Below are positions 1,624-62,695 of a DNA stretch of 64,000 nt, in pieces. Made by a program: the position numbers and the translations under genes. The notes beneath the pieces were generated by a model. It was not told where the DNA came from and did no database searches. It was given only the letters and a program-made list of their open reading frames with translations. The stretch is from a virus (lineage: Duplodnaviria; Caudoviricetes), in IMG/VR virus record IMGVR_UViG_3300037851_000141, positions 128,001-192,000 of that record; one strand, given 5' to 3'. Position 1 is the first letter of the stretch. Each line of letters starts with the position of its first letter.

Positions 1624-1785
1624 ATGAGTATTAACATCGAAAATATGCCAGATGTCCTTGCTATCATACAGGTTAGGGACGGTAAGATTGTTTTGGATAT
1701 TGATGATAAAAAGATTGAAAAGGACGAATTAATGGTTATAATATCTCAACTACTTACAACCTATCTACAACAAAAAGGAGAATAA
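1624..1785 (+). CDS. Small hypothetical protein (53 aa), absent from ORF track
   Basis: ATG 1624 after AAAAGGAA, open to TAA 1783-1785; fills the gap between polymerase and uvsX. Confidence 0.6.
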   Translation: MSINIENMPDVLAIIQVRDGKIVLDIDDKKIEKDELMVIISQLLTTYLQQKGE

Positions 1786-1786
1786 G

Positions 1787-2917
1787 ATGGCTAAGAGTGA
1801 ATCTGATAAACAGAAAAAGAACGCACTTGATTTTATTAAGAACTTCCAAAAGACAAATGGACTTGCTTCTGTATTGAGCGAATCTAAATTAAGCAACATT
1901 CGTGACTATATTAGTACCGGATCATATATACTTAATCGTGTTATAAGTGGTTCATATTTCAAGGGTTGGCCCAATAATAGAATCATGGTAATCGCTGGTG
2001 CAAACTCAACAGGTAAGACTTACGTATGCCTTAGTACTGCCAGAGAAGCGCAGAAAAAGGGTTGGCAAGTTGTTTATTTTGACTCAGAAAACGCAGTTGA
2101 TGCTGATTTCGCACGTAATATTGGTGTTGATCCAGAAACTATGCTTCATATTCCAGTAAAAACAATTTCTCAATTCCGAAATGAAGCAGTTAAGTTGATG
2201 CGTGAATGGCGAGCAAATGAAGCAACTAAAGATATACCAATGATAATGTTCTGCGACTCTATTGGTAACTTATCTGGTACTAAAGAAATGAATGACGTTG
2301 AAGCAAGTAAAGATGCCTCTGATATGGGCCAACGAGCAAAAGAGTTAAGAGCCTGTGCGCGTATTTTAACCATGGAATGTGCCGAAAACGAAGTTCCTCT
2401 TATTGCTACTAACCACACATATGAACAGCAAAATATGATGGGCGCTCCTACTATTAAAATGGGTGGTGGTGAAGGATTTGCTTACGCTACCTCTGGAATT
2501 CTTATTCTCCAGAAGAAAGTTGTTAATGATGACACTGGAGAGAAAGATTCTGAAGGTCGCAAGATCGTAAATAAGAGTGGCACCATTGTTATTGCTACAT
2601 CAGAAAAGAATAGATTAGTACCATTCGGAAGTCGTGGTTATGCTTATATTGACTTCCGTAAAGGATTAGTACCTCTTTATGGGTTATTGGATGATGCCTT
2701 AAAGTATGGATTAATTGAACAATCTGGTGCTTGGTACACTGTAAAAGGTGTCGAAAAGAAATTCAGAGAAAAAGAGTTATATACAAAAGAGGTCTGGCAG
2801 CCAATTATCAAAGAACTTAATGAAAAGGTTATGGCCGATAATAAGTTCTCTCAATATGATGATTCTGCTATTCCAGACTTTGTACTTGACGAGGAAGAAC
2901 AAAAAGAAGTCGAATGA
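1787..2917 (+). CDS. uvsX: RecA/UvsX-like recombinase
   Basis: STGSYILNRVISG, Walker A GANSTGKT, YFDSENA, DSIGNL, KMGGG motifs. Confidence 0.93.
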   Translation: MAKSESDKQKKNALDFIKNFQKTNGLASVLSESKLSNIRDYISTGSYILNRVISGSYFKGWPNNRIMVIAGANSTGKTYVCLSTAREAQKKGWQVVYFDSENAVDADFARNIGVDPETMLHIPVKTISQFRNEAVKLMREWRANEATKDIPMIMFCDSIGNLSGTKEMNDVEASKDASDMGQRAKELRACARILTMECAENEVPLIATNHTYEQQNMMGAPTIKMGGGEGFAYATSGILILQKKVVNDDTGEKDSEGRKIVNKSGTIVIATSEKNRLVPFGSRGYAYIDFRKGLVPLYGLLDDALKYGLIEQSGAWYTVKGVEKKFREKELYTKEVWQPIIKELNEKVMADNKFSQYDDSAIPDFVLDEEEQKEVE

Positions 2918-16606: not shown

Positions 16607-17910
16607 GAACTTTAAGTATAGAACAACTGATAAATACGCAATATAAGAAATATTCCTTATATACGGTTGAATCCAGAGCTATTCCTTATATTACAGATGG
16701 TCTAAAGCCGGTTATGCGTCGTTCTTTATGGATTGGAACTAAATTGGCTAAAGATTGGGTTAAAGTCACCAAACTGGCTGGAGCTACCCTGTCCCTGCAT
16801 CCTCATGGTTCAACTTCGGTCGAGGACGCAATTTCAAGTAATGCTCAAAGATTTTCTGGTGCCAATAATGTTTGCTGGTTTAATGGAAAAGGGGCCTTCG
16901 GATCAAAAATTGTAGGTCCAGGCAATGGAATAGGTGCTGCTCGTTATGTTTCAGTAAAGCTATCAGATCACTTTTATAAGATTATGGATGTTGATCATGA
17001 TTTGATAGAACTTCAAGCAAACTATGATGATACTGAACAAGAACCTAAATCATTTTTACCATTAGTTCCAACTGTTTTACTAAATCCAGTTCAAGGTATT
17101 GCTGTTGGTTTCGCGTGTAATATTCTACCTCGTAAATTGGAAGATATAATACATTGTCAAATACAGCATATACAAGGTAAAGACTTCAGAGAACCAAAAG
17201 TATTCTTTGATGGGTTTAAGGGTAAAGTTGAAAAATTAGAACATAATACTTGGAAGGTCACGGGAGTATTTGAGAAAAAGGGCAACCAACTTCATATTAC
17301 AGAATTGCCGATTGGAACCAGCAGAGAACAGTTTATAAAGATATTGGATAACCTTGAAGATAAAGAAATAGTATCATCTTTTATTGATGGATGTACTGAT
17401 GAGTTTGACTTTATTGTAAACCTTAAAGTTGATCTTACAGATGATGAAATATACGAGAAATTTAAGTTATATAATACAATAAATGAAAATATAAATGTAA
17501 TAGATATAAGTGGTAAAATCAGAAATATGACAGTTTCGGAGATAATTAAAGAGTTTACTGATTATAGATTTAAGTTCTATTTGGCGAGATTTAAGAAACA
17601 GTTTCATGCTTTACGCGCCGAATTTGAGTTTGAAAAGGACTTATTAAGAGTTATACAGAAGGGATTATTCAAGAAATTCCCAAATCTTAAAAAGGCAGAA
17701 ATACATCAACTATTATTAGAGAATGAAATCAAAGAAGAAAATATACCAAAAATAATACAAACTCCAATATATAAATTCGGTAAAGATGAGATAGAAAAGA
17801 TAATAAATACATTAAAAGAACTAAAGATAAAATTGGAGAATCTGATAAAATTGTGTAAGAACGAAGATTTAAGAAAAGATGAATATATAAAAGAACTAAA
17901 AGGAATCTAA
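16603..17910 (+). CDS. 52: Type II topoisomerase medium subunit (gp52/GyrA-like)
   Basis: DGLKPVMRR, HPHGSTS, GAARY catalytic Tyr. Confidence 0.93.
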   Translation: MRTLSIEQLINTQYKKYSLYTVESRAIPYITDGLKPVMRRSLWIGTKLAKDWVKVTKLAGATLSLHPHGSTSVEDAISSNAQRFSGANNVCWFNGKGAFGSKIVGPGNGIGAARYVSVKLSDHFYKIMDVDHDLIELQANYDDTEQEPKSFLPLVPTVLLNPVQGIAVGFACNILPRKLEDIIHCQIQHIQGKDFREPKVFFDGFKGKVEKLEHNTWKVTGVFEKKGNQLHITELPIGTSREQFIKILDNLEDKEIVSSFIDGCTDEFDFIVNLKVDLTDDEIYEKFKLYNTINENINVIDISGKIRNMTVSEIIKEFTDYRFKFYLARFKKQFHALRAEFEFEKDLLRVIQKGLFKKFPNLKKAEIHQLLLENEIKEENIPKIIQTPIYKFGKDEIEKIINTLKELKIKLENLIKLCKNEDLRKDEYIKELKGI

Positions 17911-48295: not shown

Positions 48296-49102
48296 ATGGA
48301 GTCAGATAGCTTCGGTGATCGGATGAAATTGCTTGAACAGGCTGAAGCAGGAAGACAACTCATTCCGCTTCTTCCTATTATGATCCGTCTTGATGGTAAA
48401 GGATTTCATAATTGGACTAAAGGCTTGAATAGACCATATGATATTGGCCTGTCAACCCTTATGAAAGAGACAACACGTTTTCTGGTTGAAGAAACTAATG
48501 CTAAAATCGGATATACTCAATCAGATGAAATAAGTCTGATACTTTACTCCGATACATATGATTCTCAACCTTTTTTCAACGGCAAAATACAAAAACTAAA
48601 TTCTGTTATATGCTCCATGACAACCGCTTTCTTTAATCATAATGTTCAGAAATATCTACCAGAAAAAACAGGCAAGTTAGCTATTTTTGATTGTCGCATC
48701 TGGAATGTCCCTACGAAAACTGAAGCAACTAATACAATTCTTTGGAGAGAACAGGACGCATCTAAAAATTCAATCAGTATGGCAGCAAGACACTTTTTCT
48801 CACATAAACAACTCCAAAATAAAACTGGTTCAGAGATGCAAGAGATGATGTTTACTGAGAAAAATGTCAATTGGAATGATTATCCTGCTTTCTTTAAACG
48901 AGGCACTTTCATCCAACGTAAAAAGAAAATGGTAAAATTCTCTGCTGAAGAAATCAATAACCTTCCAGAAAAACACCAAGCAAGAACAAATCCAGACCTT
49001 GTAATTGAACGTACGGTTGTTGAAGAAATCAATATGCCAAAATTCTCAACAGTTAAAAATAGAAATGAAGTTGTCTTTGATGGTGCTGATCCTGTTGTCT
49101 AA
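48296..49102 (+). CDS. thg1: tRNA-His guanylyltransferase (Thg1)-like 3'-5' polymerase
   Basis: FGDRMK, IRLDGKGFH, YTQSDEIS, FDCR, WREQDASKNSI. Confidence 0.93.
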   Translation: MESDSFGDRMKLLEQAEAGRQLIPLLPIMIRLDGKGFHNWTKGLNRPYDIGLSTLMKETTRFLVEETNAKIGYTQSDEISLILYSDTYDSQPFFNGKIQKLNSVICSMTTAFFNHNVQKYLPEKTGKLAIFDCRIWNVPTKTEATNTILWREQDASKNSISMAARHFFSHKQLQNKTGSEMQEMMFTEKNVNWNDYPAFFKRGTFIQRKKKMVKFSAEEINNLPEKHQARTNPDLVIERTVVEEINMPKFSTVKNRNEVVFDGADPVV

Positions 49103-52457: not shown

Positions 52458-52586
52458 AAAGACTGAATGCCTGAAAGTTTACATTAGGATCTCTTGGTAG
52501 GTGGTTCAATTCCACCCAACCCGCCTCGCGTGGTTGTAGCTCACCGGCAGAGCAGGAGAGTTAACTTTCAACTTTTGTCAGTCTTT
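52458..52586 (+). ncRNA. Circularly permuted tRNA-like RNA, candidate YrlA-type Y RNA
   Basis: 5'-3' order is terminal stem, T arm (GGTGG-TTCAATT-CCACC), loop-closed acceptor stem, D arm (GCTC-ACCGGCA-GAGC), terminal stem; AAAGACTGA/TCAGTCTTT and TGAAAGTT/AACTTTCA helices; no anticodon loop. Confidence 0.75.
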
Positions 52587-52590
52587 TTAT

Positions 52591-53190: not shown

Positions 53191-53349
53191 ATGAAAGATA
53201 CCAAAGATAATGAAGTAAGAATAAGACTAACAAGTGAAGATAAAAACTTGATTGAAACTAATGCCAAGAACTTCGGATTTGTCTCAGTAAGTGAATACCT
53301 TAGATATATAGGTAAAAACTGTAAAGAAATCAAAATAAAAATCCAATGA
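53191..53349 (+). CDS. Small ribbon-helix-helix protein (52 aa)
   Basis: EVRIRLTSEDKNLIETNAKNFGFVSVSEYLR; RBS GGAG; ATGA-coupled to tnpB. Confidence 0.75.
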   Translation: MKDTKDNEVRIRLTSEDKNLIETNAKNFGFVSVSEYLRYIGKNCKEIKIKIQ

Positions 53350-54956
53350 TAAAATCTTACTCGTTCTACTGCTCTGACCTTAATAAGAAAAAGACAGATT
53401 TACTCTTACAAAAAGCAGTAGAATTGAGAGATTTTAAGAATCAAATATCTAAAGAAGTTTGTTCTAACTTTAGTTATTTCAACGAGATAAGTAAATTTGA
53501 CTGGATAACTTATTTCAGAACTCAACTTCCAAATTGTAATAATCAAGATATAAGTAATGCTATTTCAGATGTTTATGATAGTTATGAAAATAAACGAAAT
53601 AAGTTTATACAAAATATCTCATTCAAAGTCCAAAAAGAAATAAAATATACTTATTACAAAAATAACGGTAAAACTTATAAAAAAGGTGATGTTCGAGATG
53701 CTGAAGTTATCCTTGGAAGTAATAAGTTTACTAAATGCCTTACCTACTTATGTAGATACTGGAATCCTAACTTTATATCCTGGCTTGAAGAAAATAAAGA
53801 CCTTGATGAAAAGAAAGCCCAACTTCGTAATGATGCTCTGTCTTTGTTTAAGAAATATCCTGAACGAATAACGGTTCTTATTATCTCTCATAGAACCTCA
53901 GTAATAAACGAACTTGTTGAACATCCAATAACGTTCAACTCACTTAGTTTCAGAAGTTGTAATGAACTAAGAACTAAAATACTTAATAGAAATAAGAATC
54001 TCCAGGCTATATTTGGTGCTATTATAACTCTTGGAGGACAGAAAACATCATCAGGCAAACTCCATATTCCTGTAAAATATAGTTACTCTCATCATGGAAA
54101 TATAGATGACTATGATAAATCACCAAACGCTAAAGGGGTCAAAACTATATCATATACAGTCTGCTTCTATAAAAATAAAATAAGATTTGTATTAGGTAAA
54201 ACTGTAGATGATGAACTTCCGATAACTGACAAGAACGAATATTATGGAATTGATCTAAACGTTAAACATAATCTCTTCTGTGATAAACATGGGCAAACTA
54301 TAGATTATGATAGACGTATATTTCAAGATTATGTTAACTTCCTCAAAACCTTAGACTCAAAACATCAATATAAAAAACAACATAATCTCAATCTGGAATT
54401 AAGTAAAAAAGACCAAGACAAGTATGACACTTGGACTTCTCGTATAAAAGATATGTTGAAACGTAAATCTAATCAATTAGTCAAACAAGCAATAACTCAA
54501 GGCAAAAATCACATTGTAATGGAAGACCTTGGACAATTCTGTAAGTCATTTTCAAGATCAGAAGACTTTGACGGTTTCAAGTATTCTAGACTCATAAAGA
54601 TGTTAAATCTATCTGACTTGAAAAACATTGTCAAGTCAATTGCGAATAAACACGGAATTCAAGTCTCATTTGTTCATTCTCATTATACTAGCCAAACTTG
54701 CTCAAAATGTGGATTCATCTCAAGAGAAAATCGTAAATCGCAAGAAACTTTCTCTTGTCTTGAATGTGGACATACTAATAATGCTGATTCCAATTCTGCT
54801 GAAAATATAGAAAATAGAATGTCTGTAGATGATCTACAGGTCAAACTTCTATTGTCAGATAATGGTTCATGCTATCCTAAGAAACTAGGGAAGGCAACTA
54901 TTATCTCTATATTACATGATTACTATTCTCAAAAAGAAATAAACAAATTAGAGTGA
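53346..54956 (+). CDS. tnpB: TnpB-family RNA-guided endonuclease-like protein (536 aa)
   Basis: RuvC-I GIDLN, RuvC-II VMEDL, Zn ribbon TSQTCSKCG..CLECG, RuvC-III NADSN. Confidence 0.88.
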   Translation: MIKSYSFYCSDLNKKKTDLLLQKAVELRDFKNQISKEVCSNFSYFNEISKFDWITYFRTQLPNCNNQDISNAISDVYDSYENKRNKFIQNISFKVQKEIKYTYYKNNGKTYKKGDVRDAEVILGSNKFTKCLTYLCRYWNPNFISWLEENKDLDEKKAQLRNDALSLFKKYPERITVLIISHRTSVINELVEHPITFNSLSFRSCNELRTKILNRNKNLQAIFGAIITLGGQKTSSGKLHIPVKYSYSHHGNIDDYDKSPNAKGVKTISYTVCFYKNKIRFVLGKTVDDELPITDKNEYYGIDLNVKHNLFCDKHGQTIDYDRRIFQDYVNFLKTLDSKHQYKKQHNLNLELSKKDQDKYDTWTSRIKDMLKRKSNQLVKQAITQGKNHIVMEDLGQFCKSFSRSEDFDGFKYSRLIKMLNLSDLKNIVKSIANKHGIQVSFVHSHYTSQTCSKCGFISRENRKSQETFSCLECGHTNNADSNSAENIENRMSVDDLQVKLLLSDNGSCYPKKLGKATIISILHDYYSQKEINKLE

Positions 54957-55006
54957 TATTTTATCATTCTATGCTGTTTTTAGTAATCATCCAGCGTAAT
55001 TTATAG

Positions 55007-55123
55007 TACTCCTTAGTTCAATGGTAGAACATCGGCCTTGATCGCTATAGGAAGCAATGTAGTTCAAGTCTACAAGTGATCACCATGGAGCCGAGAATGC
55101 TGGTTCGAATCCAGCAGGAGTAA
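55007..55123 (+). tRNA. tRNA-Gln(TTG) interrupted in the anticodon loop by a 46-nt insert
   Basis: TACTCCT/AGGAGTA acceptor (U1:A72), GTTC/GAAC D stem, TCGGC/GCCGA anticodon stem, GCTGG-TTCGAAT-CCAGC; removing 55040-55085 gives loop CT-TTG-GA. Confidence 0.75.
55040..55085 (+). ncRNA. Nested mini-tRNA (acceptor stem, T arm, ACCA) inside tRNA-Gln
   Basis: GATCGCT/AGTGATC 7-bp stem, 11-nt linker, TGTAG-TTCAAGT-CTACA, A-CCA. Confidence 0.75.
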
Positions 55124-55129
55124 TTTTAT

Positions 55130-55201
55130 ACCCCTAAAGTGAAGATACCGTCACGTTAGCTTGTCGCGCTAAAGGGGAGAGTGGAAGTCTCTCTAGGGGT
55201 G
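55130..55201 (+). tRNA. Atypical tRNA-Asp(GTC)
   Basis: ACCCCTA/TAGGGGT acceptor, G73; TTAGC-TTGTCGC-GCTAA; non-canonical T-loop TGGAAGT. Confidence 0.75.
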
Positions 55202-55251
55202 CTTGCTTTTTCATTTTTTTATGGTACAATAATAATCTACGGAAAGAGGAT

Positions 55252-60622: not shown

Positions 60623-60977
60623 GAGATACCCATTTCGTAGTCGTAGGTTGCGTAAGAAATATCGTCAAAAAGAATTTGCTGAATATGGATTTGAGGTATC
60701 TGGAAGTTATTTTGGTGAGTGTAAGTGTTTGTGGTTTGTTAGAGACGAAGTTTTTATAAATTTAGCTGAAATGATTGAAAAAGCCGGGTTTTATTTTGGT
60801 GGTGGATATAATGATAATACTTGGGGTTTTACGTTTGGTAAGTATCGTGGTTCCATTACTTTAGAAGATAAAAATAAGATACTCGAAGAGATTAAAAAGA
60901 TGGAAGGTGCTGGTCTAAAAATTGAAAAAGTTAGTGATTTGATTGACCTTTGGTACGAAAATCGGGATCCAAAATAG
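60612..60977 (+). CDS. YggL/DUF469-like protein
   Basis: RSRRLRKKYRQKEFAEYGFEV..FGGG. Confidence 0.8.
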   Translation: MKARRYPFRSRRLRKKYRQKEFAEYGFEVSGSYFGECKCLWFVRDEVFINLAEMIEKAGFYFGGGYNDNTWGFTFGKYRGSITLEDKNKILEEIKKMEGAGLKIEKVSDLIDLWYENRDPK

Positions 60978-60980
60978 TTC

Positions 60981-61008
60981 TTGACTTTGATTTTTTGTCG
61001 GCTATAAT
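60981..61008 (+). promoter_or_regulatory. Sigma70-type promoter for the Ro60 gene
   Basis: TTGACT-N16-TATAAT. Confidence 0.65.
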
Positions 61009-61063
61009 GTTCGTCGCAAAAGCCAATAAACCCTTGTCCCTCCAAGAAAGGAAGGAATGTATC

Positions 61064-62695
61064 ATGGCTAACAAGAATCTTTTCCAATCATCTGCTGGTA
61101 TGGCTCCAATCACTGACGCTCTTAATGAGGCTGGTGGTGTAGCTTATAACCTCTCTGATAAAGCGGCCCTTGCTCAGATGGTGGTTACTGGTTGCTTTAA
61201 TCAGACTTTTTATGCTGATGCCAAAACTCAGCTTGATACTGTGTTGAAGCTGGCAAACAAGGTTCCAACCAAGTTTGTCGCTCAACTGGCGGTATATGCT
61301 CGCACTAATGCTTATATGAAGGATTCTCCTGCGGTTCTTGCTGCTGTGCTGGCAAGTCGTGATATGGGAATGCTGAAGTCTATTTTTGCCACTGTAATTG
61401 ATAATGGCAAGATGGTTCGCAACTTCTGCCAAATCCTTCGTTCTGGTGTTGTTGGTCGCAAGTCATTTGGAACTGCTGCTAAGAAACTGGTTCAAAACTG
61501 GCTGATTAACCGTAAGCCAGAGCAGTTGTTCCGTGATATTGTCGGCAACGATCCTTCTCTGTCAGATGTTATTAAGATGACTCACCCTCATCCAAAGAAC
61601 AAGACTCAAGAGTTTATGTTTGCCTATATCTGTGGTCGAGTCAACATTGAAGTCAAGGGTAATACTTTGACTGCTACCAAGGTGTATAATGGCAAGACTC
61701 AAACCATCAAGTCTGAGAATATTCCAGATATTGTCAGAGATTTTGAGATTTTCAAGGCGAAGAAACTTGCTGGAAAGAGTGCTGGTGAGACTCCAGATGT
61801 GCCTTTCCAAATGTTGTCTTCATTGAATATGGGTACTGCTGAGTGGACTGAAATGGCTCGCAATGGGTCTTGGACGTTTACTCGCATGAATCTGAACAAT
61901 TTCTTGAAGTATGATGTGTTCAAGGATAAAAAGATGGTTGATATGATTGCTGATCGACTTTCTTCATCAACCGAAGTGAAGAAGTCCAGAGTATTCCCAT
62001 ATCAGCTACTTACTGCGTTCAAGTCAGTATCTTCAGAAATGCCAACCAAGATCACCAACGCACTTCAAGATGCTATGGAGATTGCTGTTGGGAACATTCC
62101 TGATCTTGACGGTAAGAAAATCTATGTTTGTGTTGATACCAGTGGAAGCATGCAGAGTGCTGTAACTGGTGATCGTGGCGGTGGTACTACTGCGACAACT
62201 TGTGTTGATGTAGCTGGACTTGTAGCCTCTGCGATTCTGCGTAAAAATCAAGATACCAGCGTAATTCCATTTGATACTGACGTTCACTTGGTTTCTCTTA
62301 ATTCACGGGATAGTGTCATGACCAACGCACAAAAGTTGGCTCTGCGTGGGGGTGGTACTGATTGTTCTTGTGCGCTTCGGTATCTTAACAACATTGAGGC
62401 TAAAGGGGATGTCGTTATCTTTGTCTCTGATAATGAGAGTTGGGCTGATCGTGGATATGGTCGTGGAACCGGAACGCACAACGAATTCCTGAAATTCCGT
62501 AAGCGTAATCCAAATGCGGTTCTGATCAATATCGACATTCAGCCAAACACTTATACTCAAACCAAGGAATCACCTTATATCTTCAATATTGGCGGATTCT
62601 CTGATCAAGTATTTGAGATTATCGCTGCCATTGCCAAAGATAGACTCAATAAGGATTGGTTCGTGACTGAGATTGAAAAAGTTAAGATTGGCTGA
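61064..62695 (+). CDS. rsr: Ro60/Rsr (TROVE plus vWA) RNA-binding protein
   Basis: NEAGG.AY, TGCFNQTFY, YARTNAYMKD, RKSFG, SRVFPYQLL; vWA VDTSGSM..GGGTDC..FVSDNES; RBS-supported start 61064. Confidence 0.92.
   Translation: MANKNLFQSSAGMAPITDALNEAGGVAYNLSDKAALAQMVVTGCFNQTFYADAKTQLDTVLKLANKVPTKFVAQLAVYARTNAYMKDSPAVLAAVLASRDMGMLKSIFATVIDNGKMVRNFCQILRSGVVGRKSFGTAAKKLVQNWLINRKPEQLFRDIVGNDPSLSDVIKMTHPHPKNKTQEFMFAYICGRVNIEVKGNTLTATKVYNGKTQTIKSENIPDIVRDFEIFKAKKLAGKSAGETPDVPFQMLSSLNMGTAEWTEMARNGSWTFTRMNLNNFLKYDVFKDKKMVDMIADRLSSSTEVKKSRVFPYQLLTAFKSVSSEMPTKITNALQDAMEIAVGNIPDLDGKKIYVCVDTSGSMQSAVTGDRGGGTTATTCVDVAGLVASAILRKNQDTSVIPFDTDVHLVSLNSRDSVMTNAQKLALRGGGTDCSCALRYLNNIEAKGDVVIFVSDNESWADRGYGRGTGTHNEFLKFRKRNPNAVLINIDIQPNTYTQTKESPYIFNIGGFSDQVFEIIAAIAKDRLNKDWFVTEIEKVKIG

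Follow-up and report, generated by a model that had tools for sequence, protein, structure and literature searches.

To our knowledge, self-splicing group I introns are the only means by which tRNAs are known to be spliced in bacteria and their viruses. The closest described relatives of the element analyzed here, a 46 nt tRNA-shaped insert that interrupts the anticodon of a phage tRNA-Gln gene, are the "enigmatic" introns in the Thr, Gly, Phe and Tyr tRNAs of Lak megaphages, one of which "may itself encode a tRNA" (Devoto et al., 2019; PMC6784885, Fig. 4 and Table S6). The Lak introns, for which alleles with and without the intron were used, are 79-114 nt long, start with a conserved hairpin and end with a stem plus 2-3 nt; the report offers no mechanism and never mentions RNase P or a ligase. 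Our literature searches found no later work on such phage tRNA introns. The tRNA-Gln gene lies in a stretch of 64,000 nt, hereafter the window, which corresponds to bases 128001-192000 of the 331,849 bp IMG/VR virus record IMGVR_UViG_3300037851_000141 (G000:C1), a jumbo phage of 35% G+C from a freshwater metagenome. Positions given without a record or contig name are those of the window. The insert, at 55040-55085, is a real and conserved element and almost certainly an intron.

The Rfam tRNA model (RF00005) covers 55007-55123 end to end in all of its 71 positions with 59.3 bits (E = 2.8e-10; gathering score, 29 bits), the fifth-best Rfam tRNA score of the window, and leaves 49 nt inside the anticodon loop unaligned. 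ARAGORN missed the gene in its default mode and recovered it with a 46 nt intron in intron mode. According to the Rfam alignment, the 5′ exon (55007-55039, + strand) comprises the acceptor strand UACUCCU, the D arm, the anticodon stem strand UCGGC and the loop bases C32, U33 and U34, and the 3′ exon (55086-55123, +) comprises U35, G36, G37 and A38, the stem strand GCCGA, the variable loop, the T arm, AGGAGUA and the discriminator A73, without an encoded CCA. The insert between them, on the same strand, begins with the acceptor-like strand GAUCGCU (55040-55046), continues with the D-loop-like AUAGGAA (55047-55053), a GCAA linker between 55053 and 55058 and a T arm (UGUAG, 55058-55062; loop UUCAAGU, 55063-55069; CUACA, 55070-55074), and closes with the returning strand AGUGAUC (55075-55081), which pairs with 55040-55046, and a single-stranded ACCA tail (A73-CCA, 55082-55085). 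A 7 bp stem is thus stacked on a 5 bp stem with a canonical T loop, and a GG-containing linker occupies the place of the D loop. In the minimum-energy fold of the 117 nt gene, the outer cloverleaf and the inner minihelix coexist (-38.7 kcal/mol, z = -3.9), and none of 200 shuffled sequences folds as well; folded alone, the insert gives z = -2.25. The segment 55040-55085 scores 69.3 bits with model R1.

An allele without the insert was found in a groundwater metagenome (run X2) on a 4 kb contig that is ~94% identical to the gene downstream of tRNA-Gln, indicating that alleles with and without the intron exist among related phages. In the X2 allele, the base corresponding to 55039 (...GGCCTT) is joined straight to TGGAGCCG, giving the junction CTT|TGGA and a tRNA exactly 46 nt shorter, while 55014-55039 and the first 8 nt of the 3′ exon are identical. 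Since neither end of the insert duplicates an exon base, its register is unique, and exact excision of 55040-55085 would give the loop CUUUGGA with the anticodon UUG. When the junction pattern was searched against metagenome contigs, the only match was an ordinary tRNA-Gln(UUG) from an organism unrelated to the phage, which has the same anticodon arm with the loop CUUUGGA. The gene carries U1-A72, whereas the tRNA-Pro(UGG) of the phage itself carries C1-G72, the signature of bacterial tRNA-Pro. Therefore, the name Pro(UGG) given by ARAGORN, which rests on a one-base shift, is excluded by the X2 allele, the U1-A72 pair and the identical arm in the ordinary tRNA-Gln. The first-pass annotation of this DNA, made by a model from the letters alone, had placed the 46 nt between positions 34 and 35, as the X2 allele confirms; it had drawn the 7 bp stem, the T arm and ACCA correctly to the base, and its argument that excision restores CT-TTG-GA and that U1:A72 fits Gln is upheld by the X2 allele and the comparison with tRNA-Pro.

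Like the Lak introns, the window insert interrupts a phage tRNA at its anticodon loop, contains a domain made of an acceptor stem and a T arm, is variably present and belongs to no Rfam intron family. It differs from them in being a minihelix alone of 46 nt that ends in ACCA, whereas the 79-114 nt Lak introns have no NCCA end, and in starting directly with its stem at 55040, whereas the Lak introns carry a conserved 5′ hairpin (CAGAGUAAACUG-like). The two forms are bridged by the tRNA-Leu(UAA) intron of another phage, G001, a composite of 79 nt in which a Lak-type 5′ hairpin is followed by the UAUAGGAA/T-arm module of the window insert. The window element is a minimal, CCA-ending variant of the barely described Lak-type kind; complete novelty would be too strong a claim, and the earlier statement that no element of this type had been described must be withdrawn in view of the tRNA-like Lak introns (Devoto et al., 2019; PMC6784885).

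Two better-known classes of tRNA intron are less similar. Group I introns occupy the same place in tRNA genes, and one of them interrupts the tRNA-Lys(UUU) of this phage, but they exceed 200 nt and have a P3-P8 core, which the 46 nt insert lacks; a search of 54950-55250 with the Intron_gpI model (RF00028) gave nothing at E up to 10. The tRNA-Lys intron (227 nt; L004:4611-4829, - strand, within G000:C1:316550-316852) scores 49.1 bits in Rfam, where the gathering score is 50, and so the genome holds two different kinds of tRNA intron. Archaeal and eukaryal bulge-helix-bulge introns are also short, spliced by proteins and located in or near the anticodon loop, with non-canonical positions known. 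In the window gene, however, both junctions lie at one end of a 7 bp helix instead of in two 3 nt bulges 4 bp apart, and this phage has no gene for the splicing endonuclease (PF01974). The Rfam result and the geometry of the fold agree with the earlier judgment that the insert is neither a group I nor a bulge-helix-bulge intron.

The tRNA-Gln gene is not alone in its genome. A structural descriptor composed of a 7 bp stem, AGGAA, a 5 bp T stem with a UUCRANY loop and the returning strand found three sites in the 332 kb genome, all of them in tRNA anticodon loops, and no site in 20 shuffled genomes. Altogether, three further tRNA bodies bear anticodon inserts. The second gene reads Thr(UGU) (G000:C1:197790-197908; insert of 45 nt; Rfam score of the body, 58.4 bits), the third reads Arg(UCU) (G000:C1:275593-275714; 48 nt; 48.8 bits), and the fourth, recognized by ARAGORN only, reads Gly(UCC) (G000:C1:198848-198953; 35 nt with a degenerate T arm), its body having no Rfam match at E <= 0.01. 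These assignments assume that the start of each insert coincides with the first base of the insert stem. Two of them have independent support from exon similarity, by which the second gene is closest to a tRNA-Thr(UGU) and the top three matches of the fourth are all tRNA-Gly; the body of the fourth gene also has G1-C72, C2-G71 and U73. ARAGORN in intron mode names the four genes Pro, Ile, SeC and Trp where we assign Gln, Thr, Gly and Arg; the names Ile(AAU), SeC and Trp for the Thr, Gly and Arg genes are ruled out by exon similarity and the identity of the acceptor ends. The uninterrupted tRNAs, together with the group-I-split tRNA-Lys, cover all amino acids but Gln, Thr and Gly and do not include Arg(UCU). 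As read here, the four interrupted genes would supply exactly what this set misses. CAA makes up 80% of the Gln codons of the phage, and AGA is its commonest Arg codon. Because the phage often uses TGA as a stop, no opal suppressor is needed.

Other carriers were found by a motif scan of IMG/VR followed by tRNA scans of the whole records. As alignment of the inserts by MAFFT lost the register of the stems, we used the descriptor search and a covariance model instead. The tRNA-Gln genes of phages G002 and G003 have the loop CUUU-[GAUUGUU...AACAGUC-GCCA]-GGA, in which the insertion point is one nucleotide 3′ of that in the window and the product would again be CUUUGGA. The G002 intron is 76% identical to that of the window; nine of the 11 differences fall in the stems, none of them breaks a pair, and three are double compensatory changes. 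A second interrupted tRNA of G002, whose insert ends in ACCA, reads Asn(GUU) under the stem-start rule; between Asn and Tyr, the features G73, U1-A72 and a short variable arm favor Asn, but G002 is otherwise without a tRNA-Tyr.

A covariance model trained on the two homologous Gln introns recovers all of the G001, G002 and G003 introns described above and free-standing copies outside tRNA genes. In an alignment of 13 family members, which was fitted to the covariance model so that the covariation figures have to be read with this in mind, 96% of the cells are paired compared with 59% after shuffling, 11 of the 12 pairs vary on both sides, and the covariation score is 1.07, which none of 500 shuffles reaches, compared with 0.28 after shuffling and <= 0.14 in all slid controls. 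Among the signs of a one-off rearranged pseudogene, the first-pass annotation had named a lack of homologous inserts with compensatory changes in related phages; such inserts are found, both in G002 and across the 13 members. The window insert represents the minimal version of a family of tRNA-shaped introns that large phages carry in their tRNA genes.

Related structures were seen alongside this family. Free-standing copies of the stem/AUAGGAA/T-arm module occur at L145:1474-1522 and 1783-1831 (- strand), ~300 nt apart, one of them ending in ACCA with a TATAAA-like sequence upstream, and also in L020, L024/L034, L105, L114 and L138. G001 has two tRNA-Thr(UGU) genes (L066:16752-16907 and 17754-17906) with ~80 nt anticodon-loop inserts of another conserved type, which are not tRNA-like, share the blocks UGGGUA..AUGGGAGAA and ACGUCCGAAGCGU and have no Rfam name. 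Three viral contigs of sample 3300045988 (L010, L015 and L018) carry tRNA-like genes with a shortened or missing anticodon arm; in L010, the D arm passes almost directly into the variable region and the T arm.

Other searches delimit the distribution of the locus. BLAST of the locus against public phage records gave no match, and the insert-free junction, searched as an exact pattern, did not occur in viral contigs. The gene downstream of tRNA-Gln, used as a synteny anchor, retrieved no relatives among viral contigs, and the Thg1-like gene of the phage retrieved one relative of 55% identity (L035/G005), in the fetched stretches of which no interrupted tRNA was seen. Among the first 120 motif matches listed for bacterial and archaeal genomes, none had the full module in a tRNA.

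Comparison of the genes indicates what sets the splice sites. The insertion point varies by gene (34/35, 35/36 or 36/37), as does the loop part of the 3′ exon, from 2 to 4 nt, and therefore the exon context does not set the sites. In contrast, the 5′ site is constantly base +1 of the insert stem. The 3′ boundary falls exactly after NCCA in five of the six minimal introns (ACCA, UCCA, ACCA, GCCA and ACCA), and removal of the stem through NCCA restores a 7 nt loop in five of the six. NCCA would follow a given stem by chance in 1/64 of cases, and a CCA of their own is encoded by none of the four interrupted outer tRNAs (~8 of 26 tRNA genes overall), so the CCA is part of the insert. The two homologous Gln introns are inserted one nucleotide apart and leave an identical loop. 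These comparisons suggest that the splice sites follow the intron and not the exon, the intron's own ends defining them.

External guide sequences and minimal RNase P substrates are acceptor/T minihelices with a 3′ RCCA. Their minimal features are a 12 bp acceptor/T helix, a T loop and an RCCA tail, and U-1 and G+1:C72 are preferred. All of these can be read at 55039-55085: U-1, G+1:C72, a 12 bp coaxial helix, a T loop and A73-CCA. Among the inserts, the constant features are a helix with its first pair at the 5′ site and a 3′ RCCA tail, and a T loop and a GG linker are present in most copies. The earlier proposal of an RNase P substrate-like minihelix thus agrees with near-ideal site features in both sequence and fold. 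RNase P leaves a 3′-OH on the upstream product, and a 3′-OH and a 5′-phosphate are the ends that the ATP-dependent Rnl1- and Rnl2-type ligases seal. A search of the genome for Rnl1, Rnl2 or RtcB, which the first-pass annotation had recommended, found an Rnl1-type ligase (G000:C1:301931-303142; 54.5 bits) and an Rnl2-type ligase (G000:C1:283572-284579; 74.7 bits; T4_Rnl2_C domain, 72.4 bits) and no match to RtcB. The phage also encodes a CCA-adding-type nucleotidyltransferase, and a 2H phosphoesterase was not confirmed in it by Pfam.

In the pathway that we propose, host RNase P would cut between U34 and G+1 and leave a 3′-OH on the 5′ exon, a second endonucleolytic cut after CCA would leave a 5′-phosphate on the 3′ exon, and the Rnl1- or Rnl2-type ligase of the phage would seal the anticodon loop, releasing a free CCA-ending mini-tRNA. 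The GG-containing linker may dock on the T loop of the insert. We infer splicing itself and every one of these enzymatic steps. The RNase P and ligase pathway is the best explanation available and would fit the data, and we estimate the probability that the insert is an intron of a functional tRNA-Gln(UUG), removed by RNase P, a second cut and an Rnl-type ligase, at roughly 0.55. We hold it distinctly less probable, as a tentative extension, that this is a new splicing pathway in the full sense, in which tRNA-end enzymes excise mini-tRNA introns, phage Rnl ligases rejoin the exons, and the released mini-tRNA has a function of its own, either as a decoy for tRNA-directed defense nucleases or as a mobile form. 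A role for the released RNA is conceivable because free-standing copies of the module exist. That the insert might hide the anticodon or act as a decoy is speculation.

Known systems contain parts of this scheme. RNase P and RNase Z cut the tRNA-like mascRNA out of MALAT1; there, as would be the case here, tRNA-end processing frees a tRNA-like module from within a longer RNA. The pathway proposed here differs in that both flanks would be kept and rejoined, the module being the intron; we know of no established use of RNase P for intron removal with both flanks rejoined. The Pnkp/Rnl1 repair system and Rnl2 of phage T4 share with this phage the Rnl1- and Rnl2-type ligases and the break in the anticodon loop. 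However, the break in T4 results from the defensive action of a host anticodon nuclease, with no insert to remove, and no full Pnkp was found in this phage, only a kinase of 165 aa.

Several observations weigh against the RNase P and ligase pathway. The insert-free relative is very close, so the insertion is possibly recent and intact exons are no proof of function. In the search of sequencing runs, the sequence was carried by DNA runs only and by no RNA run. No RNase Z-type nuclease, archaeal-type splicing endonuclease (PF01974) or RNase P RNA was found in the phage, and thus host enzymes or another protein must act. Apart from the Thermotoga-type RNase Z, we know of no enzyme whose cut in a bacterial precursor falls exactly after CCA while the trailer is retained. 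The Lak-type introns and the G001 composite carry a 27-31 nt 5′ hairpin and end with the stem plus 2 nt; a single RNase P rule therefore cannot cover the wider family, nor can RNase P alone set the Lak-type 5′ site. Many jumbo phages carry RNA ligase genes, and so does G005, in the examined stretches of which no insert was seen. The stand-alone 165 aa AAA_33 kinase makes a heal-and-seal route through a cyclic phosphate possible. Finally, the Thr insert ends with its stem plus AA and not with NCCA. With ACCA it would fit the rule exactly, so that it resembles a CCA-type intron from which CC was lost; either this intron is in decay or CCA is dispensable.

The surroundings of the tRNA-Gln gene bear on some of the alternatives. 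A TnpB/Cas12f-like ORF of 536 aa (53346-54956, +; Pfam Cas12f1-like_TNB, 60.9 bits), given here as context only, ends 50 nt upstream of the gene. It is one of four TnpB copies in the genome, two of which abut interrupted tRNAs (Gln and Gly). A gap of 74 nt separates the 3′ end of the second of these (L002:7027-8343, - strand, equal to G000:C1:199027-200343) from the interrupted tRNA-Gly, and both tRNA-abutting ORFs are preceded by a homologous ORF of ~75 aa. Apart from the TnpB elements within this genome, no protein recurs beside interrupted tRNAs across phages. Between the stop of the TnpB/Cas12f-like ORF and the present tRNA-Gln lies a 15 nt fossil of the 3′ end of an insert-free, X2-type tRNA-Gln, AATCATCCAGCGTAA (54986-55000, +), which agrees with the 3′-terminal 16 nt of the X2 allele at 15 of 16 positions. 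The window holds no second 5′ half of tRNA-Gln. The locus has been rebuilt, since TTTATA stands after the fossil as well as after the present gene. The size and place of the fossil are as expected for the guide of a TnpB omega-RNA at the right end of the element. Downstream of tRNA-Gln, an uninterrupted tRNA-Asp(GUC) at 55130-55201 (+; Rfam, 40.2 bits) was overlooked by ARAGORN.

Further genes of the tRNA islands may be mentioned here. The islands encode a Thg1-like 3′-5′ polymerase (48296-49102), the CCA-adding-type nucleotidyltransferase (L002:639-1979) and an IF-3 homologue (L002:3038-3565). The interrupted tRNA-Arg is followed at a distance of 70 nt by an ORF of 317 aa (L003:13784-14737, +), which gives a signal of an ADP-ribosyltransferase-type fold; its similarity to the RNA 2′-phosphotransferase Tpt1/KptA is too weak for that name (Pfam, 19.9 bits; PDB, E = 0.1; phrog_11974). 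A candidate YrlA-type Y RNA at 52460-52587 matches Rfam RF02553 over its full length with 47.6 bits (E = 2.7e-9), below the gathering score of 69, and shares its tRNA island with a Ro60 homologue (TROVE + vWA; 60950-62695). YrlA RNAs are bacterial Y RNAs with a tRNA-like module, in which a T arm is combined with a GG-containing D-like element (Chen et al., 2014; PMC4201824). The tRNA-Gln insert resembles them in these three features and in the nearby Ro60 gene, but the tRNA-Gln RNA has no Rfam YrlA match and the module also occurs in phages without Ro60.

The alternative that survives best is that the module is a selfish mobile mini-tRNA, an independent small-RNA gene or mobile unit that enters anticodon loops, its excision from the tRNA being incidental and the mini-tRNA itself, whether released or free-standing, being the functional product, for example as a decoy. 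The module stands free in several phages, with two copies in L145, one of them having both ACCA and a TATAAA-like sequence upstream; its presence or absence differs among close relatives; and its insertion points vary, the homologous Gln introns being one nucleotide apart. On the other hand, it has no linked mobility machinery, as no neighboring protein family recurs across phages and only TnpB does so within this genome, and its flanks share no common target motif. We consider such an element possible, yet doubtful. It is also compatible with splicing and even needs it, because the interrupted tRNAs are the phage's sole copies of their kind.

It is unlikely that the gene is a tRNA pseudogene inactivated by the insertion, or a non-decoding tRNA-shaped RNA that retains the insert. 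The insert-free allele of the close relative would allow a recent insertion, the older tRNA-Gln 3′-end fossil and the TnpB element directly upstream mark the locus as rearranged, and the CCA has been lost in the Thr paralogue. However, four separate tRNAs with inserts jointly fill the exact gaps of the uninterrupted set, the Gln exons of G002 are intact around an intron that has diverged by 24% with pair-preserving changes only, and covariation is strong across the family.

A different chemistry is less probable still: a nuclease of the phage or the host, or self-cleavage, would leave a 2′,3′-cyclic phosphate and a 5′-OH, a kinase would heal the ends, and Rnl1 would seal them, as in the T4 repair of the anticodon loop. 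The phage does encode an Rnl1-type ligase and the stand-alone AAA_33 kinase, and the ORF with an ADP-ribosyltransferase fold and weak similarity to Tpt1 adjoins the interrupted tRNA-Arg. This similarity is nevertheless below threshold (19.9 bits; PDB, E = 0.1), no 2H phosphoesterase, RtcB or splicing endonuclease was found, no ribozyme family matched the region at E up to 10, and the conserved parts of the insert are exactly the tRNA-like ones, with no additional catalytic core. Very improbable is a docking module for the phage Ro60, that is, a Y-RNA-like tRNA mimic instead of an intron: although the Ro60 homologue lies 6 kb downstream and bacterial YrlA RNAs contain tRNA-like modules (PMC4201824), the separate YrlA-like RNA at 52460-52587 is the natural partner of Ro60, the tRNA-Gln region matches neither YrlA (RF02553) nor Y_RNA (RF00019) at E up to 10, and TROVE is absent from the module carriers G001 (94% complete), G002 and G003.

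The annotation of phage tRNAs could be improved by taking such inserts into account, given that the default mode of ARAGORN missed four tRNAs in this genome and its intron mode misnamed all four. If the RNase P and ligase pathway is true, the same route would also account for the "enigmatic" introns of the Lak phages, and the RNA ligases of phages would gain a housekeeping role beyond the repair of damage inflicted by defense systems. Under the same condition, RNase P, a cut at the CCA end and an RNA ligase would together constitute a third, protein-dependent way of removing tRNA introns.

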